From Pseudoalteromonas translucida KMM 520 (GTDB lineage: Bacteria > Pseudomonadota > Gammaproteobacteria > Enterobacterales > Alteromonadaceae), in NCBI RefSeq assembly GCF_001465295.1, contig NZ_CP011034.1, positions 2,790,001-2,822,000 on the forward strand: DNA of 32,000 nucleotides, in the 5' to 3' direction. The notes beneath the pieces are model-generated. The model did not search any database. It was not told the origin of the DNA and worked only from the letters and a program-made list of their open reading frames with translations. Both the position numbers and the translations under genes were made by a program. Of this stretch, positions 2,633-21,159 are shown piece by piece; position 1 is the first letter of the stretch, and the number at the start of each line of letters is the position of its first letter.

Positions 2633-2730
2633 GCCCCCTTAGTGTCAATTTTTTTGACTCTGAGTAATTATAGTATAAAAATAATAAGCAGTATTATACG
2701 CACAATGTTTTAGTATTAAGAGCAGGAAAA

Positions 2731-3075
2731 ATGCATTGGATATATTTAATAATAGCTGTAACTCTTGAAGTTATAGGTACAACAGTAATGAAGTGGCTGG
2801 TAAACGAAGACCAGTTACTATTAGGTAGCTTATTTGTAACTTTAATGGTTGGCTTAGCTTACCTTGCTCTTAGCCAGGCCACCAGCAAAATTCCTATCGC
2901 ACTTGCTAACGCCTTCTGGGAAGGTTTGGGCATGATATTAATTGCATCTGTGTCATTTGTATTTTTAGGCGAAGCTATTTCTATTGGGCAAATGTTTGCA
3001 CTTTTATTAGCTATTATCGGCATTGTTATAATTAACAGCGGCCACGCTATGCAAAATCAAGAGCAAAAACAATGA
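2731..3075 (+). CDS. Small multidrug resistance (SMR) family transporter subunit, paired type (MdtJ/MdtI-like)
   Basis: 114 aa with 4 TM helices and a conserved membrane-embedded Glu in TM1 (AVTLEVIGTT). ATGA overlap with the next SMR gene. Confidence 0.85.
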   Translation: MHWIYLIIAVTLEVIGTTVMKWLVNEDQLLLGSLFVTLMVGLAYLALSQATSKIPIALANAFWEGLGMILIASVSFVFLGEAISIGQMFALLLAIIGIVIINSGHAMQNQEQKQ

Positions 3076-3398
3076 CAGTGTATTGGCTTTATATTCTTGG
3101 ATCAGTAATTTTTGACATTGCCGCCAACGTATTTTTAGAAATGTCGCACGGGTTTAAGCACAAACGTTTTGGCATACTTGCCATTGTTTTTATTATGGCC
3201 GCGTTTGCCTTGCTTACCCTTGCTGTGCAAGGCATCCCACTGTTTATTGCCTACGCCACCTGGGGAGCCCTTTCAATTAGCGGCACTGCGCTGGCAACTT
3301 GGTTGTTGTTTGGTCATAAATTAAACTGGGTTGTTTGTTTTGGTTTAGCCGTACTTATTTTATCTATTGTGACAATGCAATTAGTTGGCCCCGCGTAA
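3072..3398 (+). CDS. SMR family transporter subunit (second member of a heterodimeric pair)
   Basis: 108 aa with 4 TM helices. The start overlaps the upstream stop (ATGA at 3072-3075), which suggests translational coupling. Confidence 0.85.
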   Translation: MTVYWLYILGSVIFDIAANVFLEMSHGFKHKRFGILAIVFIMAAFALLTLAVQGIPLFIAYATWGALSISGTALATWLLFGHKLNWVVCFGLAVLILSIVTMQLVGPA

Positions 3399-3519
3399 AT
3401 ACACCTTATTAAAAACTAGCTAAAGTGCTCTGCAGTTCAAGCTAGTTCTTCCTGCAGTTTTGTTTTGCCTCAGTTAACTTTACTTTAGGCTAAACTTCTA
3501 ACTTAGTTGACTATTTTAT

Positions 3520-3564
3520 AGCGCAACGCTATAACTTGTAACACGTTGCGCTGTGCCAACCTAC
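3520..3564 (-). repeat. REP-like palindromic element (GTAGGTTGG head on the minus strand)
   Basis: agcgcaacg (3520-3528) pairs with cgttgcgct (3544-3552) and is followed by gtgccaacctac. The reverse complement begins GTAGGTTGG, the same head as the elements at 7102-7139 and 7871-7903. Confidence 0.4.
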
Positions 3565-3657
3565 AAAGTAGTAAATAAAAACTTAAAAGCGCACCGCTTG
3601 CTTAAGCTATCACTAGTTTAGGTTTGGCATTATTATACTTATTACCTTGAGGCATTT

Positions 3658-4662
3658 ATGTTCAAGCAACTACAAGAAAAACATCAGCTTTCTATACTGC
3701 TTATACTCAGTATTGTGTCTGTATTTGGTATTACGCCATTTATTATTATTCGTTTTATAGAAAATAACATAGTCGCAGCGCTAATTGACTTAGCCATTGT
3801 AAGCGGTATTTTAACCTTGGTCGGTTATGCCCATTACACTAAAAAGCCGCGTGTTATTAGCGCCGTTATTGCATTGCTTGTTAATATTAGCGTTATCGCT
3901 ATTATAATTACCAACGGCATTAACAGCATGCTATGGATTTATCCGGTAGTAGCCGTTACGTTTTTTTTAGTAAAGCCAATAGAAGCACTCATACTCACCC
4001 TAAGCAATGTGGCAATTATTGCGAGCATACCTAATTTATTCGATGTTATACCGCTAAACTCTTACTTTACAACCAACTTAATGCTAGCTGCCTGTGCTTT
4101 TGTATATGCCTCTTTTGGCAACAAGCAGCTTGCTTTACTTGCAGAACTAAACAGTACAGATCCTTTAACTGGGGCATTAAATCGCCGTGCGCTTAACGAC
4201 GATACACTAGCCGCCATTTCGCGAGCAGAGCGTTATAACAGCACTTATTTATTAGCGTTTTTAGACTTAGACTTTTTCAAAAAGGTAAACGACGATTTCG
4301 GCCACGCCGAAGGAGACAGAGTACTAAAGCAGTTAGTGTCAATTACCAATTCACATATAAGAGAATCAGATAAGCTATACCGCTTTGGTGGCGAAGAGTT
4401 TGTGTTAATAATTCCCGAAATCCCGCCCAAAGAGCAAGTTAGCTTTATAAACAAGCTACGCGAAACAATAAAAAACGAGTTAAAAACACCTGCAGGTAAC
4501 TCAGTTACTGTATCTTTTGGTGTTGCAGCTTGGGTACCGGGCACCACAGTTGCTAGCTGGTTTAAACGCGCAGACGATGCTATGTATCAAGCAAAAGAAC
4601 AAGGCCGCGACTGCGCCGTATTTAGTAAAGATTCAAACTTTGAAATAAGTAAGCCAAACTAA
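3658..4662 (+). CDS. Membrane-anchored diguanylate cyclase (GGDEF domain)
   Basis: About 160 aa of N-terminal TM helices, then DPLTGALNRRAL...DLDFFKKVNDDFGH...RFGGEEF. An RxxD I-site (RESD) lies 5 residues upstream of GGEEF. Confidence 0.9.
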   Translation: MFKQLQEKHQLSILLILSIVSVFGITPFIIIRFIENNIVAALIDLAIVSGILTLVGYAHYTKKPRVISAVIALLVNISVIAIIITNGINSMLWIYPVVAVTFFLVKPIEALILTLSNVAIIASIPNLFDVIPLNSYFTTNLMLAACAFVYASFGNKQLALLAELNSTDPLTGALNRRALNDDTLAAISRAERYNSTYLLAFLDLDFFKKVNDDFGHAEGDRVLKQLVSITNSHIRESDKLYRFGGEEFVLIIPEIPPKEQVSFINKLRETIKNELKTPAGNSVTVSFGVAAWVPGTTVASWFKRADDAMYQAKEQGRDCAVFSKDSNFEISKPN

Positions 4663-4689
4663 CCACTTGGCTAAGTGCGGCTTTACCCA

Positions 4690-5028
4690 TTATTTATCTT
4701 TGTTTAGCAGCGCCTTTAAATCGGCAAACGGATTATGTGTAGCCGCCACCACTTTTTGCTCTGTAGTACCGCCGTACAACACATATTCGTGATATTTATT
4801 ATGCTCATTATCATGGCAATAAATACACAATAACTCCCAGTTACTACCATCATCAGGGTTATTATTATGGTCATGATCAATATGATGCACCGTTAACTCT
4901 CGTAAATTAGAATACTCAAACTCACGAGCACAGCGCCCACATACCCAAGGGTACAATCTTAACGCTTTAATTCGATAACCTTCTTCTTGCCGCTGATAAG
5001 CCTGCATACCACTCGTGGTTTTACTCAT
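4690..5028 (-). CDS. yajD: HNH nuclease family protein YajD
   Basis: Near-collinear with E. coli YajD as I remember it (YPWVCGRC..REF.YSNLRELTVHHIDHDH.NNP.DGSNWELLC.YCHD.EH, C-terminal NPFADLKA). Confidence 0.9.
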   Translation of the reverse strand: MSKTTSGMQAYQRQEEGYRIKALRLYPWVCGRCAREFEYSNLRELTVHHIDHDHNNNPDDGSNWELLCIYCHDNEHNKYHEYVLYGGTTEQKVVAATHNPFADLKALLNKDK

Positions 5029-6169: not shown

Positions 6170-6695
6170 CGTGTTCTCAGATTTGGTTAATACCGTTTAG
6201 ATAATAACGCAGTTGTAGATGAAATTCATACAAAGGAAAAGTGAAAGGCTTTAAGCTTCAAGGAAGTAATATTTTAGTTCGTGATTTTTTCAGCAATAAA
6301 ACACAGGCTCCTGCGCTCCCCATAAAAAAGACAACTACAAACCTGCTCCCCCTATCCAATTACAATTGTGTTTGATTAATTCAGTAAAGAGTCAGCCTTA
6401 TTTTGCTATCAATGTTGCTGTATTTTTCGGTACTGCATGAGTCATAAAACGCCTTGCTTAACCTTAACTATTAAACCTGAACTCTGGTTAAGAGATTCAC
6501 TTACGTATTGAATCATATTTATATTTAATTTTATTTTCTCTAGCCAGAGGTTTTCAGTGAAAACAAGGCTAATTTACGCGTCAATAGCTGGCCTATTGCA
6601 AGAAAACTCAACGCAGTTAGCGCTGAAAATAGCTGCTTGAGATAAGTTTATTATCCGAAGCTCAGGTTATTAAGCTCACAGAGGCACAACACGTT

Positions 6696-7067
6696 ATGAC
6701 AACTACTTTTTTAAGCCAATTACAGCAAGTCGCACTGCAACAAGCCCTTATCAGCACCAAGCTTCTAAACAGTTATACATTAAAGAGTAATAACGCACCA
6801 TCGCCCAAGCAACAAGCCTATAGCTTAATTGCTGTCGCGCTATACCGCTTTAATCTACAAAAAATAAAATGGTCATCTTTTTTAAAAACAGCCATAAATA
6901 CAGCAAACAACACATGCCAATGGTTAGCCACCGAACTTGTAAGGTGCCAACAAGACTATAAAGCCCAATCTCATGACACTGTAATTAGCGAACAAAGTGC
7001 ATTCATTAATGGTATTTTTAGCGAAGAACTCGTTTATATTGATGGTTTACTGGGGGTTGAAGCGTAA
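6696..7067 (+). CDS. Hypothetical protein
   Basis: 123-aa ORF after a 526-bp intergenic region. No recognisable motif, so coding status is uncertain. Confidence 0.4.
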   Translation: MTTTFLSQLQQVALQQALISTKLLNSYTLKSNNAPSPKQQAYSLIAVALYRFNLQKIKWSSFLKTAINTANNTCQWLATELVRCQQDYKAQSHDTVISEQSAFINGIFSEELVYIDGLLGVEA

Positions 7068-7101
7068 GCTAACTTAAGCTTATTAAAGCAATTATGTGAA
7101 C

Positions 7102-7139
7102 TGTCGGATGGCGCGACTGCGCCGCTTATCCGACCTACG
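7102..7139 (-). repeat. REP-like palindromic element (GTAGGTCGG head)
   Basis: The minus strand reads cGTAGGTCGGATaagcGGCGCagtcGCGCCATCCGAca, a nested palindrome closely resembling enterobacterial REP units. Its GTAG contains the antitoxin stop codon (7135-7137). Confidence 0.55.
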
Positions 7140-7424: not shown

Positions 7425-7721
7425 TTACTCCAATTCACTTAAAAGGGCTTTTGCTTTGGTAATGTCTTTGCCTTGTGTGCCTTTGTGTCCACCATTGAGT
7501 AGTAAAATAACTTCACCGCCTCTAATTATGTAATAAACACGATAGCCTTTCCCTACGAAAATTCGCATTTCAAATATGCCACCACCAACAGATTCACTAT
7601 CGCCAAAGTTACCATTTATAGCACGTGTAATACGTTTAGCTATTGCCATAAAAGCTTGACGATCTTTGAGCTTTTTAAGCCATTTATCGAACTCGTCGGT
7701 TTTCTTAATACGATATTTCAT
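7425..7721 (-). CDS. Addiction-module killer protein (RelE/ParE superfamily, HigB-like; toxin gene first)
   Basis: FDKWLKKLKD...ITRAINGNFGDSESVGGGIFEMRIFVGKGYRVYYIIRGGEVILLLNGGHKGTQGKDITKAKALL matches the TIGR02683-type killer family. The ATG at 7721 is preferred over the TTG at 7739. Confidence 0.85.
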   Translation of the reverse strand: MKYRIKKTDEFDKWLKKLKDRQAFMAIAKRITRAINGNFGDSESVGGGIFEMRIFVGKGYRVYYIIRGGEVILLLNGGHKGTQGKDITKAKALLSELE

Positions 7722-7870
7722 AAAACAATTGTAGCCCAAAGGCTACATGCGTGCAATTTTATTTAAGGGATACCGAATTTTGATTTAACAATCAACGCGG
7801 CAGCAAGCTAAACGCCTACAATAAATAATACATACTCTTGGCTTTTAAGCGAGTAAGTATATTTGGGATT

Positions 7871-7967: not shown

Positions 7968-8033
7968 AAATTTTTATAAATTCCCAAACTATAACGGGAC
8001 TTACTTACCATCAAAGATTAAAAATTATTAATC

Positions 8034-8038
8034 TCTGC
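8034..8038. repeat. Target-site duplication, left copy (TCTGC)
   Basis: TCTGC lies immediately outside the TGTCA terminus at 8039. An identical pentamer lies immediately outside the other terminus (18261-18265). Confidence 0.75.
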
Positions 8039-8174
8039 TGTCATGCTCTAATTAAGTTTGTGAATCGGCCTTTAAAAACAAAGAGCTACAACAAAACAAT
8101 ATTTCAATTAAGTTTGTGACTAGAAAGTAAACTCCACTCAATTTGTTCTTCTTAATTTTAATTAAGTTTGTGAC
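8039..8174 (+). repeat. Tn7L-like end: terminal TGTCA plus three spaced putative transposase-binding repeats
   Basis: AATTAAGTTTGTGA occurs at 8050-8063, 8106-8119 and 8160-8173, with 56 and 54 bp spacing. This resembles the three dispersed TnsB sites of Tn7L. Confidence 0.7.
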
Positions 8175-8287
8175 TAATTCACCGTATTAAAATTCAAGTT
8201 ATATTTTCTAATTGCTTGAATGTTAGCCTAAATACTTTATGATTAAATTTCATACAAATGTATAAGCTCAATAAAAGGATTTAAGTA

Positions 8288-8650
8288 ATGATTTCATTTT
8301 TAAGTTTATTTTTAGGTTTTGCATTAATAGGTCTAGTTTGTACTTTGTTTGGTGTAATTTTAAGCCTATTTATGGGGTTACTTGGATTAACTACAAAAAA
8401 ACTGAGTTTTTCTGACTCAGTAGAAGCATCAATGAGTTCACTTCAACCCGCTTTTATAACCGCAGCAATTCTAGTTATTCCTAGTTGTTTAACACTACTT
8501 AGGCCAGCAAGCGACATACCCGATTTTCTGTACTACGAAGATAGATTTGGTAAGAATAATGACACTACCAGCGGATTTTTCTTATTTATGTACATCTTTT
8601 CCGCTGTATTTATCATTTTATATATTTCAAAAATAAAGAGTTATTTTTAA
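8288..8650 (+). CDS. Small membrane protein (about 3 predicted TM helices), unknown function
   Basis: 120 aa with an AAGGA Shine-Dalgarno about 9 nt upstream of the ATG. Hydrophobic stretches lie at about residues 1-34, 54-70 and 96-113. It is 87 bp upstream of, and co-oriented with, the CARF-nuclease gene. Confidence 0.55.
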   Translation: MISFLSLFLGFALIGLVCTLFGVILSLFMGLLGLTTKKLSFSDSVEASMSSLQPAFITAAILVIPSCLTLLRPASDIPDFLYYEDRFGKNNDTTSGFFLFMYIFSAVFIILYISKIKSYF

Positions 8651-8737
8651 ATGTTGAGTTATTATTGATTACCTCACCATATCTTAAAAATATCATATTA
8701 AAATTCATAGTAATAATTCAAAAATATAGCGAATAAA

Positions 8738-9892
8738 ATGAAAACTAATACAAAGCAAGTGACACACATTTGTTTAATTGGAGAAGATCCAACAGCTAAT
8801 CTCACGCCCATTATTGATAAAGATATCCCTAGTGATAGAGTCATCATTGCTCATGAGAAGCATCAACAAGAGCAAGTTGAACAACTTAAAAAAGTGATTC
8901 AAACCAGAGGTTATAAAGTTGATAAATGGTTATTACCAACAACATTTAATACTGAAGAAATTAAATTAAATTTCATGCAACTATTTGAACAAGAGAACAC
9001 TCACCCAAGTGATACTTGGCTAAATGCGAGCAATGGTTCTCGCTATCAAATACTGGCCGCATATGAGGTCGCAAGAGCGTATGATTCCAAAATTTATATT
9101 GTTGAACCAAAATACGATGCACTATGTTGGCTCTCACCTGAAAATAGAGAAATGACACCCGTTGCTGATAAAATTAAATTACATGAATTCCTTTCTGTTA
9201 ATGGCTTTACTTTAACATCACAACAAAATAAGAATGGAGTATCTCTCGACCTAAGAGCAATAGGCGAAAACTGGCTAAAGCAAGCAGATAAACTACAAAC
9301 AGGACTAGCTAAACTTAATTACCTTGCACAATTTACCCATGGCGATACTTTTATAGGCAAGGAGCAAGATATTGCAATGCTAAATGATGAATCATTACAG
9401 TGGTTACTTAATGATTTAGAAATTTTAGATCTAATTAAAGTTGATGGTAAATCTGTACACTTTCAAAATGAAAAAACGCGTTTTTTTGCTAACGGTGGTT
9501 GGCTTGAAGAAATCACATTTAGCTATATCCGTAGTTTAAGTAGTGAAATACCTGAGCTACAAGATAATGGCCATAGTGTTGAAATTGAACGTTCAATCAA
9601 TGGAAAAACAATTAAAAATGAATTAGATGTTGTTGCGCTAGTAAACAACAAGCTTCATGTTATTGAATGTAAAACTAAAAAATTTAAAAATGGAGAAGGC
9701 TCCAACATGCTATATAAAATAGACTCGCTAGCTGAACGTTTAGGGGGATTAAAATGCAAGGCAGCCCTTGTCACTTTTTTTCCATTAAACAAAAGTGAAC
9801 TAGCAAGGGCAAACGAGCTTAATATCGAAATTTTTGTCGGAACAAGCTTGAAGCTTTTAAAGAACAACATCAAAAACTGGCTACAAAAATAA
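8738..9892 (+). CDS. CARF-domain plus PD-(D/E)xK nuclease, Card1/Can2-like (DUF1887-type) putative cyclic-oligonucleotide-activated effector
   Basis: The N-terminal Rossmann-like region begins VTHICLIGEDP and carries the CARF signature (D/N)x(S/T)xxx(R/K) as N96-A-S-N-G-S-R102. The C-terminal region has GGWLEE (253-258) then ELD297...VIE310-C-K312, which is a PD-(D/E)xK motif. Confidence 0.65.
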   Translation: MKTNTKQVTHICLIGEDPTANLTPIIDKDIPSDRVIIAHEKHQQEQVEQLKKVIQTRGYKVDKWLLPTTFNTEEIKLNFMQLFEQENTHPSDTWLNASNGSRYQILAAYEVARAYDSKIYIVEPKYDALCWLSPENREMTPVADKIKLHEFLSVNGFTLTSQQNKNGVSLDLRAIGENWLKQADKLQTGLAKLNYLAQFTHGDTFIGKEQDIAMLNDESLQWLLNDLEILDLIKVDGKSVHFQNEKTRFFANGGWLEEITFSYIRSLSSEIPELQDNGHSVEIERSINGKTIKNELDVVALVNNKLHVIECKTKKFKNGEGSNMLYKIDSLAERLGGLKCKAALVTFFPLNKSELARANELNIEIFVGTSLKLLKNNIKNWLQK

Positions 9893-9944
9893 AGCTAGAT
9901 AGTCCCCCTAAAAATAGGTTTATTTATATAAGGACTGTAGTAAC

Positions 9945-12900
9945 TTAGACTTTTTCCTCAGTTCCATATATAGAGGCTGGTAAATCAAATATTTTATTAA
10001 ACATAGATAAAAATGTTCTATTTTTCCTTGGGTCACTATCAAATAATTTTGAATTACAAAAGATTACCTCATCATTCTCACCAAAAAATATATCTAAGTC
10101 TGAGTATGCATCGTTTGTAAATTGAATTATCTCTCGTTGTTCAAAATATCTAATATCTATATCTTCTACAATCTTTGACTTTTCAAATATTGTTATTCGT
10201 CTCAAGTAAACATTATTCTGCAATTCCTTAACTAATGTCCCATTATTTGATAATAATAAAGACTTATTTATTGCTGAAGAGCGCATCACGGCCCAACTAT
10301 TTGAAGCTCCTAACCATAAATCACCATCCCATTCAATCTTCTGGTCTTCATGCACAGTATCGATACGTGATGAGCGAGGATTGGTATCTTTCCAATTTTT
10401 AGACGTTGGAAAAAACAAATGCATACAGTCCCCAATATAATGTGCACCTCTAGCTGTAGCTTTTCTTATTTTTGGGGATTGATTGCGATCATATAAGATG
10501 CTGACTAATAAGAACCTACCTTTCCAGTAGTCTCTAAAATTAGGGCTGCCATCTTCAGAGGTAACTGCATTATACAATTGTATTGGTAACAAATTATTAG
10601 CAATTTTCACTTCTAAATTTGAATTTGGAATAAATAATTTCACACCTGAACTATCAACTTCAGTTACTTGAACTACAACAAAGTCTCCTGTAACGCATGA
10701 GCTATTATCTAAATTGAATAAAGATAGCACTTGCAGTATTTCTTGAAAAATTTCATCATCTCCTTCAAAAACATTAAGACTAAATTTCTCAACCGCGTTA
10801 CGGATTAAATCATTTTGAGAATCTAACACTTCCCTTTTATTTTGGTTTGATAATATTTTATTATTTAAGTTTTCAATTACTTCAAGAATATACTTTCTTT
10901 TAATTTTATTTGATATTTCGGTACAAAGGTGGGATTTAGGTACACTTTTACAAAATGCTAGACCACTAAACAGAACTCGAATTTTTCGATGGGATTTTAA
11001 TTTATCATTTATATTTTGAGTATCAATATATGAAATTATAGACAATAAGTAATTTGAAAATAGTAAGTAAACTTCATCACTAATGCTTGTATTAGCCAAC
11101 TCCTTAACATACTTAGCCATATTAGTAAGAGTTATGAGACAAGTTGGCCATTTAAGTTCAGCTAAAGGCATTTCTTTAATTATTATGACAATATTATTGA
11201 CCTCACTAGGGTCTATTTCTTGAATCACATCCAGTGTAGAAATCACTTTATTAAACTCTCCATCTCCAAGATAGTTTATGAATCTTCCTGTAAGTTTAAG
11301 AGAACTCCTCCACTCCTCAATTAAATTGCTATCACTTAAATTAAAGTGATTAGACCTTATATTTAAAATCCAATAGGTAAGAGTTCTTGCTTTATACCAA
11401 GCTATAACTCCATTAAATTCATTATCATCTGCTATATTTTTTTTTGACAATAAATCAAGGAAAGGCTGAAGAATCTCGCCCTCACACTTTTGAATGGTTA
11501 TTGTATTTGGCGCGACTTGAAAATTCTTGGACGCAAGTGAGCTAGATAGCTTTCTTAGCACCTTTGCAACTTGAATATACTCTTTAGTATCAGAGAATTG
11601 ATACGAATTGAGAGTTTGTAATAAACTGTGCCATTTAATGTTTAACTCTTCTAAATCAATAAGGTTCCTATTTGAATATAGTCTAGATAATTCATGAAAT
11701 ACGATGGAGTGTAGCTCTATTTTTTCATTTTTATCTATAGTGACAATACGATTAGATTGAGTATTGTCACTTATAACATTCCACTTTTGTAATCTATCGT
11801 TTAAAGAGGTAACACTATTAAAGACTTCAACTATTAGGCTTAAGTTTAAAGGCACATTTTTGTTATGCGGTATATCTGAAAACAGTCCTAATTCATCATT
11901 GTAAGAATATGCATATCGGTATTTATTTATTTCTGTCTTTAATCGTGAACGAATATCAGATAAAGCGGCTCTAACTTTTAAATCAATATACCTAATGTTA
12001 CCAAAAACAGAAAAGTATTCGACTATATTGGCAAGCCCACGTATCAATTCATTTAAATTATCAGCTCCAACCATATCTCTTATATAAGTAGGTTTCTCAT
12101 TTGTCTGCCTTATAAAAAACAGTAAAAAAATTTCAAAGGACTTCTTGTTAATACTATCGAATTCCAAGCATTCATTTTTATCTAAAAGCTTTGTTTTATT
12201 AATCCAATTTAATAATCCAGTAATTTCACTAACTGACCAATATCCAACATCAAATTCTCTAAGATAAGCTGCACTTTTAAAACAATCTAAAGCTAGTGAA
12301 ATATTTCTCATAAATAAATGACTATTGCTTTCATTATTCTCACATGTCGACAATATCGGTTTTACATGCCTATATATTACTTCTAGATCATTCCGTATAA
12401 TTTTGTATAAATCATCTGATTCAGATACTAAAGATTTAACATGATCTTTTAATACTAAATAACGCTCCTGGTGTTCATCTGTTATGACATAAAGCATCGT
12501 CCCTCGTTTCGCTAGTTTTTCAAAAGGCTCTACCCTCTCTTCATCAAGGTAATACCACTCAGATTCAGATATCTTATCAAAACAAGCTAATATATATATT
12601 GATTGTTTAACCTTCCGTTCATCCCCCATGCCTATAAATAATCGTTCACAGGCTCCATTGTATTTTTTTATTTTTTCTGTAACATATTTTTCTATCAGCT
12701 CTTTTTGATTACTTGCATTAGTGTTTATAACTTCAGGAATACTTAATAACTCTTCAAACGATCTATTCTTAAATAAATTTAAAAGAAACCAACATCTCTC
12801 TCTAGTAGAGTTTGGCAACCTCATTATTTTTCCATTTGGTCCGTTACATAAGAAACTGGCTATTTTCTTTATTTGGACCTGTTTAAATGAATCTCTATTA

Positions 12901-13087
12901 GTAATTTTAAAGTCTACAACTTTAGACTTCAGAAATTTTTTTATTTCTAATAATGCGCTATCTGAATTAAGTGAATTATTTTGTTCCCACTCATGAATTA
13001 CATTAGCCACAAACCCTATTGATTCTAACTCTTCCAAACTCCCTATTTCAAATGGTCGTTTCAAACCTGCGAGAATATATTCGGGTT
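9945..13087 (-). CDS. Large ORFan protein (over 1000 aa), 5' end abutting or disrupted by the IS; unknown function
   Basis: A 3.1-kb uninterrupted ORF in AT-rich DNA, which is unlikely by chance. The first 8 codons of the tracked ORF (GTG at 13112, MAKITVPL) are encoded by the IS left inverted repeat, so the native start is unknown. No Walker A, DDE or other motif was seen by eye. Confidence 0.6.
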
Positions 13088-13163
13088 GTAGTGGTACAGT
13101 GATTTTGGCCACCCATTAAGAAAGAAATGTTATGCTAATAAGCATACAAATTTGGGTGAAAAA

Positions 13164-14344
<1,181 letters not shown>

Positions 14345-14347
14345 CCA

Positions 14348-15154
14348 CTACAAAAGGAATAGTTTTTGAGACAAATCGAGTTTTAATATGCGGTGTAAAG
14401 CAACATGCTTGAATATGGTTTGACTACGTTTAAAGTCTAATGACATTACTTTGCCAGTATTTAAGATGTGCTTTTTCAATGATGCGAAAGGATTTCCTAC
14501 CCAGAAATCTTCAAATATTTCAACAAACTCAAGTTTTTCACTATCTGAAACAATGGCAGTAGCCTCAGTAGTAAACCAATCTATATTCCAAGCAAGTTCT
14601 TTGGTGGCATCTTGCTCAGTAATTACAGAATAATCGCCAACATGCTCTTCACTGTAAACTTGTTCTATATGAAATTTTTGCCAAACTCGATAGTGTTTTT
14701 CCTGTTGGCTGCCATCTTCATCGACTACCCATATTTGATCCGAATACTTAAATGAATAAGTTGATTTCGTAACTTCTCCAGTACTAAAATCAACTGTATG
14801 AGCAACCAAGTCGCTCGACATAACATGAGCAGTATTAGTCTCCCAATTTCGAGGGTGGATGTAGCCAAGCTCTTCCGCTATTGCTAGATTTTCGTTAAGG
14901 TCTAATGGTACTTGCTCATCAATTTGAATAGTTTCAGGACGCCACATCAATATTTTATACGCTCGCCTTTCACCATCACTGAGCAAATGAACTTTTCGTT
15001 TTTGTTTAGGACATTTATGTAAGTGACGTCTACCTACCTTGTTAACCTGTTTAACAGTGACCCAAGGAATATGAATATCCTCGCTAGCAGCAAGTGCTTC
15101 GTTCCACTTTTCAATTTTTGCTATAACTTCTTCGGTAATTACTGGCTGTTTCAT
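14348..15154 (-). CDS. tnsA: Tn7-type transposition protein TnsA (endonuclease); the 3' end runs into the IS
   Basis: Collinear with Tn7 TnsA as I remember it: IHIPWVTVKQV..GRRH......KVHLLSDGERRAY...IDEQVPL...IAEELGYIHP...VMSSDLV...YSFKYS, versus DYIPWLTVQEV..GRSH...RVHHLLSDLELAVF..IREQFPL..IAIDSGIKHP..VMSTDFLV..IQVKP. The catalytic E/D/K equivalents are present (E66, D119, K140 in ORF-track numbering). The final Leu codon and the TAG stop are supplied by the IS right end. Confidence 0.8.
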   Translation of the reverse strand: MKQPVITEEVIAKIEKWNEALAASEDIHIPWVTVKQVNKVGRRHLHKCPKQKRKVHLLSDGERRAYKILMWRPETIQIDEQVPLDLNENLAIAEELGYIHPRNWETNTAHVMSSDLVAHTVDFSTGEVTKSTYSFKYSDQIWVVDEDGSQQEKHYRVWQKFHIEQVYSEEHVGDYSVITEQDATKELAWNIDWFTTEATAIVSDSEKLEFVEIFEDFWVGNPFASLKKHILNTGKVMSLDFKRSQTIFKHVALHRILKLDLSQKLFLL

Positions 15155-15155
15155 C

Positions 15156-15515
15156 TTAATCACCAATGATTGAGCGTAATAAAGTGAGTGGAAGTCGGGA
15201 AGCTTGTTTCGGTGTGAGTTTAGGATCGAAACGAGCTTGTATAGATAAATGGTGCAACAATGATAGGATTTTTATTAGTGCGGGATACTTTGTAGCGCTT
15301 GCTGGGATGACTATATACCCCACATTGTTGATGTGAACTAATGTCTCAAGCTTATTAGCTAATACTGATATTCCCCCTCTGCTAGCCAATTTCGGTATTG
15401 ATATGTACTTTACAACTAAGCAGTGAGAGTTTAATGCGTCAATGCAAAACCCTTTGATGGTTGAAAACGACTCAGCTTTCAGTTTTAAATTTATCTTACG
15501 TTGATTTGATTTCAT
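15156..15515 (-). CDS. Hypothetical 119-aa protein, translationally coupled to tnsA
   Basis: Its TAA stop (15156-15158) is separated by 1 nt from the tnsA ATG (15152-15154). No recognisable motif. Confidence 0.5.
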   Translation of the reverse strand: MKSNQRKINLKLKAESFSTIKGFCIDALNSHCLVVKYISIPKLASRGGISVLANKLETLVHINNVGYIVIPASATKYPALIKILSLLHHLSIQARFDPKLTPKQASRLPLTLLRSIIGD

Positions 15516-15914
15516 TTTAACCTAGCTAATTTAGAGTTCATTAAAAAATTATTAGCTATAAAAATTAAAAAATCAAGAACGCTCTAGAGGCAAACCACTG
15601 ATTTAAAAGGAATTAATGCACATTAAAATATATAGATATTATAATATTTATTAATTTTTAGAATTGGAACTCATTGATATTTAGGGCAGTTTTATTCAAA
15701 TATTTTTGGAGATATTTTAAGGTAAATTATTGTTACTATGCTGGAGTGGTCTTTTTGAGCTTTGAAAATAAATTTAATTATTTTTGTTTTTTAGGAAGAA
15801 AACATAAGAAACGGCTAAATTCTCCTATTTTCGTGATGATAAATCTGATTTTTAGAGTTAGTTCGTAGTTGAGTACTTTTCTACCATTAAGTACGAACTA
15901 CTATACAATCTGAT

Positions 15915-16838
15915 TTATTTCCTTTTACTTAGATAGTTAGATAAATCAAACTTCTTTCTAGGGTCAATAGTATATATGTTGGTATCTGGCCAAAGTTCTT
16001 TTGCTGCATTTATATTGGGAAAGGGATCAATTAAAAAAATACGAGTTATGTTCTTACCTTTTATTTTTAAGAATTCAAGCAAGGCTTTATCATATTGATT
16101 AAAAGCAAACCCAAATAAAATTAAACTTTTGCTATCTAACAGTATTTCCCCACCAAGAGACCAGACGTCTTCAAGTTCAGTTGGTGGTGTTTTTTCTGGA
16201 ACTGGTGGAATAATTAAAGATTTACCAGCTCGACCAGGCTTTCCGCTTGTATATTTAATGTCTCTTTCCCAAGAAAGAGACCCGTGCAATTTAGCTAATG
16301 GAATTTTACCTGTTACGTGAACATGTGCGTTTTGCCATGGAAATTGGGGGTTTAACCCTCTTCCATACAGTTGCTCGCCAACGACCCCATAATTAAAGCC
16401 TGAAGTACCTAAAGCACACTCCACTAATGTATCGTAATTACAAGTAATAATCCCTTTTAAGCCGTATTGGTTTAATGACAATAAAAACTGATTTAGTTTA
16501 ATTATTTTATCGTTTTCTCTTACCGCTCTCTCATCAAACATAGCGGAAGTATATGAGCCACTAATTCTTGTCATGAATGGCTCTGTAAGCCTTCTATTAA
16601 CATACCAAATAACTCTGCTTCGCCTATGGGAAGATTTATTCATACACCAATAAATAAAACGTTCAGGGGAGTTGTCTAAGTTATCTTTTAGCCAATTAAC
16701 CCAATCAGACTTCAGTAGCTCTAGCTTCCTTTGCTCAGAGTTATTTATAGTGTTGATATTAAAATCGAAAAGCTGATTTACCAATGGTAGTTCAAATGCC
16801 CATTTAGAAAATCCAGCTCCTAGAAATAAAGCTGTCAT
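15915..16838 (-). CDS. SIR2-like (SIR2_2-type) predicted NAD+-binding or NAD+-hydrolysing protein
   Basis: The N-terminal LFLGAGFS glycine motif, IITCN134YDTLVE and LAKLH185GSLSW match the defence-type SIR2 signature (Asn/His catalytic pair as in ThsA/DSR). 307 aa, with no fused sensor domain. Confidence 0.7.
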   Translation of the reverse strand: MTALFLGAGFSKWAFELPLVNQLFDFNINTINNSEQRKLELLKSDWVNWLKDNLDNSPERFIYWCMNKSSHRRSRVIWYVNRRLTEPFMTRISGSYTSAMFDERAVRENDKIIKLNQFLLSLNQYGLKGIITCNYDTLVECALGTSGFNYGVVGEQLYGRGLNPQFPWQNAHVHVTGKIPLAKLHGSLSWERDIKYTSGKPGRAGKSLIIPPVPEKTPPTELEDVWSLGGEILLDSKSLILFGFAFNQYDKALLEFLKIKGKNITRIFLIDPFPNINAAKELWPDTNIYTIDPRKKFDLSNYLSKRK

Positions 16839-18031
16839 TTATTTTTCTTCATGTTATTAGGTAACGCTTTTTGTAACCAATTTGGCTGCTTTAACCTTTC
16901 AATAAACCATTCAATGAAAGCAACTGAATATCTTGGTCTATCAGTTAAATCAAAATATTCTGCTTTATTCTTTATTTTGTGTTTTTTAACAACAGCTCTA
17001 AAAGAATAATTATTAATAATGCAGTCTGCTTGTCTCTCGTTGATTTCTTTTATTGCAGTAGTTTCATAAAAAGGATGCGTAATCTTTAAGTTCTTCGGAC
17101 GATCAACAAAAACAGTATGTTTACCATCAGGACCAGTGCCAAAAGTCAAATCTTCAGATCCTGGTTTTTTAGTAAGTGCCAACTTATACTCAATATGAAT
17201 AGCAAAACGATTAGAGTTATGTTTTTGTTCAAGTTTTTTGAATTTTTTTAAAAATTCATTTACTTGGCTGGCTGTTTTCTTTCCGTACTCTTCTTTAACC
17301 AATGCAATGTCTGGTTCTGGGCCATCAATAACCAAACTCAACATCCCTACGTTTTGATCTGCCAATGGAGCATAACCTTCTTGATGAGCAAACTCTTCTT
17401 GATAAAGCAAAACAGTGGTTTGAAATAGCCTAGATAACTGGGGCTGAATCTCAGGTAATAGAAGATGAATAGCATCATTTCTTAAAGATATTAGCTGATT
17501 TAAATTATCTTTATCTGCACTATCATTTGGATATTTAAAATTAACAGCTTCGCTTAAAGGTATGCTTTTGCCATCTTGGTCTATTAATGAGTCAAACCCC
17601 TTAGCTTTCAAAATTTGTGATTTTAATAAAAGCTCCCAAGCATTAGTCATCATAATGGCGAATGCTTCGACCCTATTTTCCAAACTTGGTCTGTTGTATA
17701 CCTCTAAAGCAACAGTAAATGCATTCAAACTTCTCTTGATAAGTTTGTAATACAGTTTTTCGTCATCTGTTAATATTTTAGCTTGTGTACTTTGCGAGGT
17801 AATCCTAATAAAATCATTATCACTAATAGCCAATAGACCTTTGCAATACCAATTTGGTCTTTTGTCTTGAAAAATATATTTACCTTTTAAGCTCTCACTT
17901 ACCAATTTTTGAATGTAATTGACTTTATTGCCAGTTGCTAGCGCTGCTTCAGCATATGTAAAAGAAAGTTTTTTTCTTTCTTTATCCCGAAAGAAGCTTA
18001 AAACTATAATTCGCTTATCTTGCTTTACCAT
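16835..18031 (-). CDS. DUF3644-like protein (N-terminal helical domain) with an uncharacterised C-terminal half
   Basis: The motif FTVALEVYNRPSLENRVEAFAIMMTNAWELLLKS is what I associate with DUF3644 (from memory). AAGGA Shine-Dalgarno about 9 nt upstream. The stop overlaps the SIR2 start (ATGA at 16835-16838). Confidence 0.6.
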   Translation of the reverse strand: MVKQDKRIIVLSFFRDKERKKLSFTYAEAALATGNKVNYIQKLVSESLKGKYIFQDKRPNWYCKGLLAISDNDFIRITSQSTQAKILTDDEKLYYKLIKRSLNAFTVALEVYNRPSLENRVEAFAIMMTNAWELLLKSQILKAKGFDSLIDQDGKSIPLSEAVNFKYPNDSADKDNLNQLISLRNDAIHLLLPEIQPQLSRLFQTTVLLYQEEFAHQEGYAPLADQNVGMLSLVIDGPEPDIALVKEEYGKKTASQVNEFLKKFKKLEQKHNSNRFAIHIEYKLALTKKPGSEDLTFGTGPDGKHTVFVDRPKNLKITHPFYETTAIKEINERQADCIINNYSFRAVVKKHKIKNKAEYFDLTDRPRYSVAFIEWFIERLKQPNWLQKALPNNMKKNK

Positions 18032-18095
18032 GAGTCTCTATCCTTGAGCATAAATGCTGGTATATGAGGAACTTCAAATTTGAGTAATACTTAAG

Positions 18096-18125
18096 ATTAT
18101 AAAGTTAAAACAATCTTACAAACAA
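18096..18125 (-). promoter_or_regulatory. Candidate sigma70 promoter for the DUF3644-SIR2 operon
   Basis: On the minus strand: TTGTTT (18125-18120), an 18-nt spacer, then a perfect TATAAT (18101-18096), about 65 nt upstream of the ATG at 18031. Confidence 0.3.
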
Positions 18126-18153
18126 CGTTAAAGAAAAAACTTTATATCAGATA

Positions 18154-18184
18154 CAAAAAAGGTGAGCATTTAGCTCACCTTTTA
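18154..18184 (-). terminator. Rho-independent terminator just inside the Tn7R-like end
   Basis: The minus strand reads aaaaggtgagc-taaat-gctcacctttt followed by tttg. It is placed to stop read-through from gcvP into the element. Confidence 0.55.
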
Positions 18185-18195
18185 GTCAATTCTGA

Positions 18196-18260
18196 GTCAC
18201 AAACTTAATTCAATTCACAAGCTCTATTGCAAGAGTCACAAACTTAATTGAAAGTTGACA
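18196..18260 (-). repeat. Tn7R-like end: terminal TGTCA plus three closely packed putative transposase-binding repeats
   Basis: gTCACAAACTTAATT occurs at 18196-18210 and 18235-18249. A degenerate copy, tTCACAAGCTCTATT, lies at 18214-18228. All are inverted relative to the left-end repeats, and the terminus ...GTTGACA ends at 18260. Confidence 0.7.
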
Positions 18261-18265
18261 TCTGC
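18261..18265. repeat. Target-site duplication, right copy (TCTGC)
   Basis: It directly abuts the element terminus. The gcvP stop codon (18268-18270) is 2 bp further on. Confidence 0.75.
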
Positions 18266-18267
18266 TC

Positions 18268-21159
18268 TTAATCGCGGTATGTCTCAACCGGTGGGCAAGC
18301 ACACACTAAGTTGCGGTCGCCGTATACGTCGTCAATACGTGTTACGGTTGGCCAAAACTTGTTTTTAGCCACTGCAGGCACTGGGAATGCAGCGTAAAAA
18401 CGGTCGTATGCACGATCCCATTCGTTACCTAACACGTCGCCTTGGGTGTGCGGTGCAAACACTAACGGGTTGTTTTCGATTGACCATTCGCCAGAGATTA
18501 CTTTGTCGATTTCGCTCTTAATTGACACCATTGCTTCAATGAAGCGGTCGATCTCAACCTTAGACTCAGACTCGGTAGGCTCTATCATTAACGTGCCCGC
18601 TACTGGGAACGACATAGTAGGTGAATGGAAGCCGTAGTCTTGTAGGCGTTTAGCTACGTCCATTTCAGTAATGCCCGACAACTCTTTAAGCGGACGCAAG
18701 TCAACAATACATTCGTGCGCAACGCGGTTGTTACGGCCACGGTATAAAATTGGGAAGTGCTTGCTTAGCTCATGCGTTAAGTAGTTAGCATTTACAATTG
18801 CCATTTCAGTGGCTTGTTTTAAGCCCTCTGAGCCCATCATGGTAATGTAAGCCCACGAAATAGGTAAAATAGACGCTGAACCATATGGCGCTGCCGATAC
18901 CGCTCCGTTACCTTCGTTAGTACCTGGTACGTTAATAATGCTGTGGTTAGGCATAAATGGCGCAAGGTGCGATTTAACACCAATTGGGCCAACACCTGGG
19001 CCACCGCCACCGTGTGGAATACAAAAGGTTTTATGCAAGTTTAAGTGCGATACGTCTGAGCCAATAAAGCCTGGGCTAGTTACGCCAACTTGCGCGTTCA
19101 TGTTTGCGCCGTCCATGTAAACTTGGCCGCCGTGCTGATGAATAATGTCGCAAATTTCACGAATTGTTTCTTCGTATACGCCGTGTGTAGATGGGTAAGT
19201 GATCATAATACACGATAAGTTTTCGGCTACTGCTTCTGCTTTCGCTTTAAGATCGGCCATGTCTACGTTACCGTTTTTATCACAATCAACAACCACAATT
19301 TTCATGCTGGCCATTTGTGCCGACGCTGGGTTAGTACCATGCGCTGAACTTGGAATTAAACATACGTTACGGTGTGCATCCCCGCGTGACTCGTGGTATT
19401 TACGAATGGCGATTAAGCCTGCGTATTCACCTTGAGCACCTGAGTTAGGTTGCAATGAAACCGCATCGTAACCGGTAATATTTACCAACCAATCATGCAG
19501 TTCGCCCATCATAATTTGATAGCCCTGTGCTTGATCTAGCGGACAAAATGGGTGCAAGTTTGAAAATTCAGGCCAAGTAATTGGGATCATCTCAGCGGTC
19601 GCGTTTAGTTTCATGGTACATGAACCTAACGAGATCATTGAGTGGTTAAGCGCTAAATCTTTGTTTTCTAGGCGCTTAATATAACGCAGCATTTCAGTTT
19701 CGCTGTGGTACGAATTAAAGTTAGGGTGCGTTAATACTTCATCATCACGCTCTAAGCTTGCTGGAATTGACGTGCTGCCATTGTTTTCAATATCGGCTGC
19801 AATTGCATCAACACTTAGGCCATGGCCTTCGCCTAATACAATATCAAATAACTGCGCTACGTCTGCACGTGTGGTGGTTTCTGATACGGCAATTGAGTAT
19901 TCGCCATCGCGGTTAGTGGCAAAGTTAACACCGCTTGCCAGTGCACGCGCAATAACGTCGGCTTTGCTATCGCTTACTACCGTTAGGGTATCAAACCAAG
20001 TGTTGTGTTTAAGGCTCACGCCTTTAGCTTGTAAGCCTGCTGCTAAAATATCGGCAAAGCGATGAATGCGCTGAGCAATGGTTTTTAAGCCTTGTGGGCC
20101 ATGGTACACAGCGTAAAACGCTGCCATGTTGGCCAGTAATACTTGCGCGGTACAAATGTTTGAGTTGGCTTTGTCGCGGCGAATGTGTTGCTCACGCGTT
20201 TGCATTGCCATACGCAGTGCGTCGTTACCTAAACGGTCTTTAGATACACCAATAATACGACCTGGTAATGAACGTTTGTACGCGTCACGTGTTGCAAAAA
20301 ATGCAGCATGTGGGCCACCGTAACCCATAGGTACACCAAAACGCTGCGCCGAACCTAATACTACGTCTGCGCCTAATTTACCCGGTGCTTTTAATAGTAA
20401 TAAACTCATAATGTCGGCAGCAACACAAGCAATTGCCTTTTTGCTTTGTACGCCAGCAATTAGGTCGGTAATGTCTACCACTTCACCAGTTGTTGATGGG
20501 TATTGAAATAACGCGCCAAAAATCTCATGGTTAACAGCGTCGGCAGCTTTGCCTACAATTATTTCAAAACCAAACTGCTCGGCGCGAGTGCTTACTACGT
20601 CAATTGTTTGTGTGTGTACGTCGTCGGCAATAAAAAATGCATTGGCTTTTTTCGCTTTAGACACACGCTTTGCAAGACCCATAGCCTCTGCAGCAGCGGT
20701 TGATTCGTCAAGTAACGATGCACTTGCTAAATCTAGGCCGGTTAAATCTAGGGTCATAGTTTGAAAGTTAAGTAACGACTCTAAACGCCCTTGCGCTATC
20801 TCTGGCTGATATGGAGTGTACGCAGTATACCAACCTGGGTTTTCTAGTACATTACGTAAAATTACGTGCGGTACATGTGTTGGGTGGTAGCCTTGGCCAA
20901 TATACGATTTGAAAACTTTATTTTTGCTTGCTACTGATTTTAAGTAGCTTAGTGTTTCAACTTCGGTGCGGCTTTCGCCCACGGTTAAAGGCTGCTCAAG
21001 GCGAATACCTGCAGGTACAGTTTGACCGATCAGCTCTTCAACACTCGATACTTCAAGCGCGCTAAGCATATCGCTTACTTGCGCTGGGCTTGGCCCAATA
21101 TGGCGGCGAATAAAATCTTGCGTTTGCTCTAACTGCTCAAGAGATTTGGCGTTTGACAT
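18268..21159 (-). CDS. gcvP: Glycine dehydrogenase (decarboxylating), glycine cleavage system P protein
   Basis: 963 aa, the single-chain P-protein length. Hallmark segments include [19 protein letters not shown], and the PLP-lysine context [18 protein letters not shown]. Confidence 0.95.

Follow-up and report, generated by a model that had tools for sequence, protein, structure and literature searches.

An overlapping DUF3644-HEPN and SIR2 gene pair carried next to gcvP by a Pseudoalteromonas translucida mobile element

Two overlapping genes were analyzed in a stretch of 32,000 nucleotides from Pseudoalteromonas translucida KMM 520 (contig NZ_CP011034.1, positions 2,790,001 to 2,822,000), which is referred to here as the window. 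The upstream gene encodes a DUF3644-type HEPN protein, named pA in this study, and the downstream gene encodes a small SIR2 protein, named pB. A preliminary description of this DNA had proposed the pair as a two-gene NAD+-depletion defense system in which pA serves as the sensor or regulator. The protein families, the loci of their relatives and the carrier element were compared, and the pair may be a cassette of two defense-type effectors that normally work on their own and were joined within one clade of marine bacteria.

The gene pair and its products

The two genes and the signals around them are located as follows, in window coordinates.

16835..18031, minus strand: pA, PTRA_a2975, WP_058374093.1, 398 aa, ATG start (open reading frame (ORF) list, Pfam, PADLOC, PHROGs)
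15915..16838, minus strand: pB, PTRA_a2974, WP_058374092.1, 307 aa, ATG start (ORF list, Pfam, AlphaFold2, Foldseek)
16835..16838, minus strand: stop/start overlap of pA and pB, 4 nt, ATGA (TCAT on the plus strand)
18157..18183, minus strand: intrinsic terminator after gcvP, inside the element end (11-bp stem, 5 G-C pairs, T tract)
18125-18120 and 18101-18096, minus strand: candidate promoter TTGTTT-N18-TATAAT, with a weak -35 and a perfect -10, read from the sequence
18041-18045, minus strand: ribosome-binding site AAGGA, in the 125-bp gap upstream of pA

The NCBI product labels are 'DUF3644 domain-containing protein' for pA and 'SIR2 family protein' for pB. Four proteins of the window (pA, pB, GcvH and that of a 1055-aa ORF) were identical to database entries of P. 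translucida KMM 520. The ORF coordinates and the sequence agree on the ATGA overlap given in the preliminary description, and by its sequence this overlap is a translational coupling of pA and pB. The strong gcvP terminator at 18183-18157 isolates the pair from gcvP, so pA and pB should need their own promoter. Such a promoter is plausible from the promoter-like sequence and the ribosome-binding site in the gap. However, a consensus promoter scan did not flag TTGTTT-N18-TATAAT, and the region upstream of pA held 9 promoter-like sites against 12 +/- 3.4 in shuffles, which is no excess. The earlier suggestion of a separate promoter is thus plausible from the separation from gcvP, and the scan gives it no support beyond chance. 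The two genes are presumably co-transcribed. Just 3' of the SIR2 stop codon, at 15858-15900, lies an imperfect inverted repeat, AGTTCGTA...TACGAACT, which does not have the form of a canonical intrinsic terminator.

The domains and motifs of pA are given below.

17798..18031, minus strand: residues 1-78, predicted winged helix-turn-helix (wHTH; three helices and then a beta hairpin, H-H-H-E-E, in the AlphaFold2 model)
17234..17746, minus strand: residues 96-266, DUF3644/HEPN domain (Pfam; Foldseek to HEPN toxins)
17687-17710, minus strand: motif ALEVYNRP, residues 108-115
17621-17641, minus strand: motif AWELLLK, residues 131-137
17465..17482, minus strand: HEPN catalytic motif Rx4H, R184-N-D-A-I-H189 (from the alignment, coordinates checked)
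16838..17233, minus strand: residues 267-398, C-terminal alpha/beta domain, putatively of the restriction endonuclease (REase)-like EC042_2821_CTD type (Pfam, homologs, family description)

The earlier DUF3644 assignment of pA was confirmed by Pfam (PF12358, residues 96-266, E=5.8e-36, with a score of 124 bits where the cutoff is 27.6). pA also matched the PADLOC single-gene candidate PDC-S19 (E=6.9e-60, residues 92-395) and phrog_9605 of PHROGs (E=1.2e-53). The catalytic R184 and H189 were invariant among 40 aligned homologs, as were E110, N113 and R114. The AlphaFold model of pA, with a mean predicted local distance difference test (pLDDT) score of 80, comprises the winged helix at residues 1-78, a helical HEPN core at residues 89-218 and, toward the C-terminus, an alpha/beta region. 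The model is poor, with low confidence, over residues 280-312. The pLDDT was about 86-93 over most of the wHTH region, for which Foldseek gave weak FadR-type matches. The core of pA superimposed on the HEPN toxins SO_3166/HepT with a Foldseek probability of 0.97 and a target TM-score of about 0.6. The HEPN core was the only part of pA that matched; over the whole protein Foldseek returned nothing significant, and a PDB sequence search with pA returned spurious matches only.

The C-terminal half of pA had been left unassigned. It was refined here to a putative EC042_2821-type REase-like domain: a PF18740 match is on record for 10 pA homologs (43-51% identity), and the match in pA itself is weak and sub-threshold (E=0.093, residues 326-383). 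In the EC042_2821 family, a HEPN domain (DUF3644, with Rx4-6H) is fused to a C-terminal REase-fold domain of ~180 aa, EC042_2821_CTD, and some members carry an N-terminal wHTH (Anantharaman et al. 2013, PMC3710099). By these comparisons, pA is a standard EC042_2821-family protein, with a predicted wHTH, a HEPN domain with the invariant Rx4H and a putative REase-like C-terminal domain.

The intact HEPN architecture and the invariant Rx4H indicate that pA is a predicted nuclease effector in its own right, and by homology it would act as an RNase. Monogenic relatives are also known. HEC-08 is a single DUF3644-type HEPN protein with anti-phage activity, which is lost upon mutation of the HEPN histidine (Payne et al. 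2024, bioRxiv 10.1101/2024.01.29.577857), and Ishtar Ist1/Ist2 is a monogenic DUF3644-type HEPN defense that clears plasmid RP4 (bioRxiv 10.64898/2026.07.06.735840). Together with the wHTH-HEPN-REase-like architecture and the PDC-S19 match, these relatives speak against the view that pA is merely a sensor or regulator.

Three motifs of pB carry the SIR2 assignment.

16806..16820, minus strand: G7-A-G-F-S11, Rossmann NAD-binding loop
16431..16439, minus strand: N134-Y-D136, catalytic Asn motif of SIR2
16278..16292, minus strand: K183-L-H185-G-S187, catalytic His motif of SIR2

All motifs quoted earlier for pA and pB were found at the residues given for them, and their coordinates were checked. 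The SIR2 assignment of pB likewise held: pB matched Pfam SIR2_2 (PF13289) with E=2.7e-7 and 31.2 bits, above the gathering cutoff of 24.5, and both catalytic residues, N134 and H185, are intact. The Pfam matches of pA and pB both lie far above chance level. G7-S11, N134/Y135/D136 and K183/H185/G186/S187 were invariant in 39 aligned SIR2 relatives. The AlphaFold2 model (pLDDT 92, predicted TM-score 0.90) shows a SIR2 fold. The top Foldseek matches were 8wld, 8uae and 8w9l (SIR2-HerA), 6lhx (ThsA) and 9jap (Avs5), with E=1e-6 to 2e-4. The Foldseek probability was 1.00 to SIR2-HerA, ThsA, Avs5 and sirtuins, and the classical sirtuins ranked below the defense SIR2s. TM-scores to the defense SIR2s were only about 0.5, at a sequence identity of 13-19%. 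A PDB sequence profile search with pB also gave matches to the SIR2 of SIR2-HerA. In agreement with the preliminary description, pB is thus a defense-type SIR2 by sequence motifs and modelled fold. NAD+ hydrolysis, and with it NAD+ depletion, would be the activity expected from homology.

The pB protein is SIR2 over its whole 307 aa, begins directly at the Rossmann GAGFS loop and has no N-terminal extension. A profile search of the full library returned 109 clusters at E<=1e-30; at the looser threshold of E<=1e-10 there were 407. Among the 150 best matches the longest was 484 aa, and full-length members were mostly 300-350 aa. These lengths indicate a subfamily of SIR2 domains that stand bare, with no sensor fused to them, as had been noted for pB itself.

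Distribution and history of the pairing

The pA homologs fall in two sets, a clade with 72-93% identity to pA and a large family of ~400-aa proteins at <=52% identity from Vibrio, Aeromonas, Shewanella, Enterobacterales and others. Within the close clade, a SIR2 gene lies downstream in every locus where pA is intact and the sequence extends far enough beyond it, with the exceptions of Colwellia demingiae and one fragment (L112). The paired loci are L008, L068, L069, L070, L071, L072, L074, L075, L122/L123 and L125, and a further pair is given by the adjacent tags BCU84_00260 and BCU84_00265 of a Shewanella genome. Conservation of the two genes as neighbors in other genomes, the lack of which would have spoken against the preliminary description, was thus found in at least 10 distinct loci, with the overlap kept and with co-divergence of the two proteins.

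The exceptions are of different kinds. In Colwellia demingiae (L065), pA is 83% identical and no SIR2 is present. The expected SIR2 slot (6194-7119 of that locus) spans about 900 bp, in which no ORF reaches 80 aa. Several of its short ORFs encode peptides that resemble one another, a sign of repeated sequence and possibly of a deletion scar. The L112 fragment has a partial pA and 980 bp downstream, with no SIR2 match. In Alteromonas stellipolaris, the SIR2 gene is split by IS21 while pA is intact, and in L078 pA itself is truncated.

Among the distant pA relatives at <=52% identity, SIR2 was found beside none of ~30, each with at least 900 bp downstream and up to 4 kb per side. Some of these relatives (about 44% identity) are followed, after a gap of 1-7 nt, by proteins of 274-279 aa with a Cthe_2314-type HEPN domain. 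The second gene of these HEPN-HEPN pairs stands in the place of the SIR2 gene at three loci:

L096, 1995-2819
L098, 5222-6061
L117, 600-1439

Others have unrelated neighbor genes, and the distant relatives as a whole show no conserved partner.

The pairing was also followed from the SIR2 side. With one genome per species, 64 species-level SIR2 loci were compared, spanning Gammaproteobacteria, Bifidobacterium, Chloroflexota, Acidobacteriota, Planctomycetota and several archaeal lineages. A DUF3644 neighbor was found in two of the 64. One is the Thalassotalea locus L008, the sole one with a pA-like gene upstream. The other is the Klebsiella grimontii locus L004, in which the DUF3644 gene is in reversed order with a 76-bp gap. 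A tblastn search with pA against the SIR2 loci missed this divergent DUF3644 protein, and it was caught by the Pfam scan of the neighbors and a hidden Markov model search. Clustering of all ORFs within +/-3.5 kb of the 64 loci revealed no universal partner for the SIR2 family, and the only large neighbor clusters were antisense shadow ORFs within the SIR2 gene. The immediate neighbors include defense-type genes (DUF4365/DREN-like in three cases, DUF2971 in two, HepT-like in two, methyltransferases, PDC-S31 and GmrSD) and housekeeping genes (glmS, glutamine synthetase, chaperonin and carboxyltransferase). The pairing is therefore not a family-wide property, given its presence in two of 64 SIR2 loci and the lack of SIR2 beside the ~30 distant pA relatives.

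A bare SIR2 was also observed directly 3' of a DUF4365 gene, encoding a DREN-like REase of the type associated with prokaryotic Argonaute (pAgo), in three loci:

L004, 5018-8311: Klebsiella grimontii, gene order DUF4365-SIR2-DUF3644
L007, 4887-6924: Lonsdalea quercina, 1-nt gap
L046, 4878-6930: Pelotomaculum

The three DUF4365 proteins are only about 30% identical to one another. DUF4365-SIR2 may be a second recurrent SIR2-nuclease pairing.

In a neighbor-joining tree, the paired SIR2s form one clade, whose sister is L001 and which is nested among unpaired SIR2s of a gammaproteobacterial group. This monophyly within unpaired relatives indicates a single juxtaposition event. Pairwise identities of pA and pB within the paired clade correlate with r=0.92. 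The stop/start overlap is kept in nine of ten paired loci, although the junctions differ (ATGA, TAGTG or TAATG). The pair occurs in two mobile contexts: in several genera it lies in gcvP-adjacent elements, and in Alteromonas-type genomes it lies in an integrase-associated island. Judged from the sequences compared, the pairing looks like a clade-restricted, lineage-specific trait of one small group of marine bacteria and not like a widespread new two-gene system.

The carrier element and its other cargo

The gene pair was described earlier as cargo of a Tn7-like element. The features of this element are as follows.

8027-18272: mobile element, about 10.2 kb, with Tn7-like ends, inserted exactly at the gcvP 3' end (repeats; G+C drop within 8-18 kb)
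18194..18272: gcvP-proximal end, where the 20-bp subterminal motif AGTCACAAACTTAATTGAAA occurs twice and the 40-nt terminal inverted repeat lies at 18233-18272
8027..8176: distal end, where this motif occurs three times in inverted orientation and the 40-nt terminal inverted repeat lies at 8027-8066
14348..15166, minus strand: TnsA homolog, 272 aa (phmmer against the Tn7 TnsA structures 1t0f/1f1z, E=7e-9, residues 29-203)
13080-14360: IS3-family insertion sequence directly downstream of tnsA, with an HTH_Tnp_1 ORF (13152-13475) and an rve ORF (13514-14344)

The 40-nt terminal inverted repeats are imperfect, and the element directly adjoins the gcvP stop codon on its right side. The 20-bp end motif was also found beside gcvP in four other loci (L069, L071, L072 and L078), which points to a family of gcvP-targeting elements with variable cargo. 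The TnsA homolog fell below the threshold of the Pfam model Tn7_TnsA-like_N (E=8.6e-4), and its ortholog in L069/L070 is 58% identical. TnsB (DDE/rve), TnsC (AAA+) and TnsD/TniQ were not detectable in the element by Pfam and NCBIfam, and the sole rve protein is that of the IS3 element, which is bounded by 45-nt inverted repeats at 13078-13122 and 14317-14361. The IS3 insertion may have disrupted or replaced the transposition genes of the element. The term Tn7-like thus holds for the end architecture, the target-site behavior and TnsA only, as TnsB and TnsC were not detected. The earlier proposal is supported by the ends, the gcvP target and the TnsA homolog and not by the transposition genes. 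Going by its gene content, the carrier element is probably degenerate or non-canonical.

Other genes were observed in and around the element. Inside it lies a 1055-aa ORF (PTRA_a2970, 9945-13112, minus strand), for which Pfam, NCBIfam, PADLOC, PHROGs and PDB sequences gave no match and which shows no similarity to the large ORF after tnsA in L069. At 8738-9889 on the plus strand, the element carries an orphan Card1/Can2-like protein with a CARF domain and a PD-(D/E)xK nuclease domain (Pfam Card1_endonuc, E=1e-34; PADLOC CARF4--CARF_PDDEXK, E=7e-112). No CRISPR-Cas component was matched among the island ORFs scanned. The CARF nuclease could be a stand-alone effector responsive to cyclic oligoadenylate. 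Just beyond the left end of the element, at 7425-7739 on the minus strand, lies a RelE/ParE-family toxin gene (TIGR02683 upstrm_HI1419, E=5e-36; Pfam Gp49). In the L069 locus of Pseudoalteromonas sp. P80D2, a 545-aa RVT_1 reverse transcriptase and a 247-aa ORF lie between the element end and the pair (2498-4887). This insert is likely a retron or DRT-type defense cassette, and such an extra cassette marks the gcvP-proximal end of the element as a cargo hotspot.

Interpretation and comparison with known systems

The reading favored here, to which about an even chance is given, is that of a clade-restricted, co-expressed cassette of two normally autonomous defense-type effectors, which a degenerate Tn7-like element carries at its gcvP-proximal end. 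pA would be a self-contained sensor and nuclease, like HEC-08 and Ishtar, that senses through the wHTH, the C-terminal domain or both and cuts RNA through its HEPN domain. pB would be a minimal defense-type SIR2 that most likely hydrolyzes NAD+ once triggered. The two genes would have been joined once, in an ancestor within the marine Alteromonadales-type Gammaproteobacteria, and would thereafter have moved as a unit on mobile elements, sharing one promoter and translational coupling. Their joint output would be a layered response of RNA cleavage and NAD+ depletion, with neither gene strictly dependent on the other. pA is taken as autonomous because PDC-S19 is a single-gene candidate, HEC-08 and Ishtar are monogenic, the ~30 distant relatives have no SIR2, and pA occurs with no intact SIR2 in Colwellia and Alteromonas stellipolaris. 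The pB family is taken as mostly solitary because no conserved neighbor was found in the 64 loci and its members are bare, with the single-gene defense sole-Sir2 as a precedent.

Several points weigh against the cassette of autonomous effectors. The conserved coupling and the tight co-divergence, over about 25-30% protein divergence, would be equally expected of an obligate two-component system. No SIR2 of the paired clade was found that lacks pA. The second SIR2-DUF3644 adjacency, in Klebsiella grimontii (L004), exceeds random placement and hints at functional affinity. Also, a 307-aa SIR2 with no sensor domain leaves its off-state and its switch-on unexplained. The main rival is an integrated two-component system. 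Here the wHTH or the C-terminal domain of pA would sense the invader, and pA would then activate the SIR2 NADase by binding or remodeling pB, so that full function takes both genes; the HEPN domain of pA may then be a second effector. All defense SIR2s characterized so far are known to be under the control of another module, either fused to them or supplied by a partner (ThsA, DSR2, SIR2-HerA, SPARSA), and an external activator is plausible for pB since it has no sensor domain. The overlap kept in nine of ten loci despite the junction change, the inheritance as a unit in two types of mobile element and the independent adjacency in L004 fit the same model. However, 62 of the 64 SIR2 loci have neither a DUF3644 neighbor nor another common partner, so this type of SIR2 must be able to work without pA. 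The wider pA family lacks SIR2, other DUF3644 HEPN proteins are monogenic, and pA survives with no intact SIR2 in the two genomes named above. The two-gene NAD+-depletion system with pA as sensor is therefore one possibility and not the best supported one, and integration of the two genes is considered somewhat unlikely. A bolder form of cooperation is doubtful. It holds that the bare ~300-aa SIR2 is a plug-in NADase module recruited by nuclease-type defense proteins, with pA physically activating pB in a dual-output HEPN-SIR2 system. On this view, DUF3644 HEPN proteins would have captured the SIR2 twice independently, with overlapping genes in the Alteromonadales clade and in reversed order in Klebsiella grimontii; the SIR2 also lies directly after DUF4365 genes in L004, L007 and L046.

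The remaining explanations have much lower standing. MntA AMPylates the HepT HEPN toxin, and by analogy pB might silence the pA RNase, for example by ADP-ribosylation, or an NAD-derived product of pB might regulate pA. The HEPN core of pA does superimpose on HepT/SO_3166, toxins whose activity depends on a modifying enzyme encoded as their partner, toxin-antitoxin pairs typically show such tight translational coupling, and some SIR2-family enzymes are ADP-ribosyltransferases (PMC9503650). Nevertheless, the pA family is overwhelmingly devoid of SIR2, the closest structural relatives of pB are NADase-type defense SIR2s, and a putative toxin gene in first position is an atypical order. pA is also intact where SIR2 is absent or disrupted by an insertion sequence, a state that cells should not survive if they needed pB as an antitoxin. 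A toxin-antitoxin-like relation is thus very improbable. The two genes could also be neighbors by accident, with no functional link and no defense role, as a product of cargo shuffling, with one or both genes decaying or serving the element itself (plasmid or element competition). The slot that they occupy does hold variable cargo, the element is degenerate, with no TnsB/TnsC detected and with an IS3 insertion, the loss or disruption of SIR2 in two genomes and the truncation of pA in L078 indicate frequent decay, and Ishtar-type HEPN proteins target plasmids and not phages. Against such an accident, which is quite unlikely, both frames are intact, all catalytic residues are conserved throughout the paired clade, selection has maintained the overlap although the junctions diverged, and at least 10 distinct loci still have the pair.

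If pA and pB cooperate, the pair would be the first HEPN-SIR2 system and an entry point to the control of a sensor-less SIR2 NADase. Even if they are independent, the locus would be a clean natural example of two single-gene defense candidates welded into a coupled operon and spread by mobile elements. It also draws attention to an uncharacterized minimal SIR2 family that is broad across bacteria and archaea. The practical value is modest, and the 2.1-kb cassette is genetically easy to test.

The pA family (EC042_2821/DUF3644/PDC-S19) and the defense-type SIR2 superfamily are already known, and their operon is undescribed in the literature found. The literature on PDC-S19, on SIR2 and HEPN pairing and on SIR2 with DUF4365 outside pAgo systems gave no description of a DUF3644-SIR2 operon, and the features of Thoeris, SIR2-HerA, DSR, Avs5 and SPARSA are absent; the pairing thus remains unmatched to a named system, as first proposed. 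Thoeris was rejected as pB has no SLOG or Macro domain and no TIR or SLOG match was found among the island genes. SIR2-HerA (Nezha) was rejected as HerA is neither in the island nor recurrent beside family members. DSR1/DSR2, Avs5 and SPARSA were rejected as pB has 307 aa with no large fused sensor or APAZ, and no Argonaute is nearby. HEPN-MNT (HepT/MntA) toxin-antitoxin was rejected as the gene after pA encodes a SIR2 and not a minimal nucleotidyltransferase. The NCBIfam model SIR2_antiphage gave pB 12 bits, against a cutoff of 500. SIR2-HerA, ThsA, Avs5 and DSR1/DSR2 share the defense-type SIR2 fold and the catalytic Asn/His with pB; unlike those systems, pB has no HerA, SLOG, STAND, APAZ/Argonaute or large C-terminal sensor, fused or nearby.

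The carrier shares terminal repeats, subterminal repeats, site-specific insertion, TnsA and variable defense-type cargo with Tn7-like transposons, whereas canonical Tn7 has TnsB, TnsC and TnsD/TniQ, none of which is detectable in it. pA has the wHTH and the HEPN Rx4H described for the EC042_2821 family and a putative C-terminal domain of the same type, and PDC-S19 aligns with it through residue 395. The EC042_2821 family occurs in restriction-modification operons and singly, with no SIR2 partner reported (PMC3710099), whereas pA has one. The PDC-S19 profile has about 330 positions and lacks the 90-aa wHTH extension of pA; the PDC systems are 'guilt by embedding' candidates, themselves not experimentally tested.

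HEC-08 and Ishtar match SO_3166-type HEPN toxins structurally (bioRxiv 10.1101/2024.01.29.577857; bioRxiv 10.64898/2026.07.06.735840). The pA core does so too, and H189 of pA is the equivalent of the histidine required in HEC-08. HEC-08 has C-terminal zinc-ribbon-like domains, whereas pA has two Cys in the whole protein and an alpha/beta C-terminus; identity of pA with HEC-08 was rejected as pA has no zinc ribbons. Ishtar (Ist1, XZW63086.1; Ist2, MGQ1310977.1) has an N-terminal HEPN domain (DUF3644 or DUF4145), no reported wHTH and a C-terminal region of 5-7 strands and 3 helices, to which pA is broadly similar when compared by description. Unlike pA, neither HEC-08 nor Ishtar is described with a SIR2 partner.

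For pB, the nearest concept is sole-Sir2 of the CRISIS study, a small SIR2 defense with no partner gene. This single protein of ~440 aa converts NAD+ to ADP-ribose, a close homolog protects against T2 and T4, and its N-terminal region was proposed as the sensor (bioRxiv 10.1101/2024.12.27.630466). Set apart by description, sole-Sir2 has about 440 aa with an N-terminal non-SIR2 region, whereas the 307-aa pB is a SIR2 domain with no such region.

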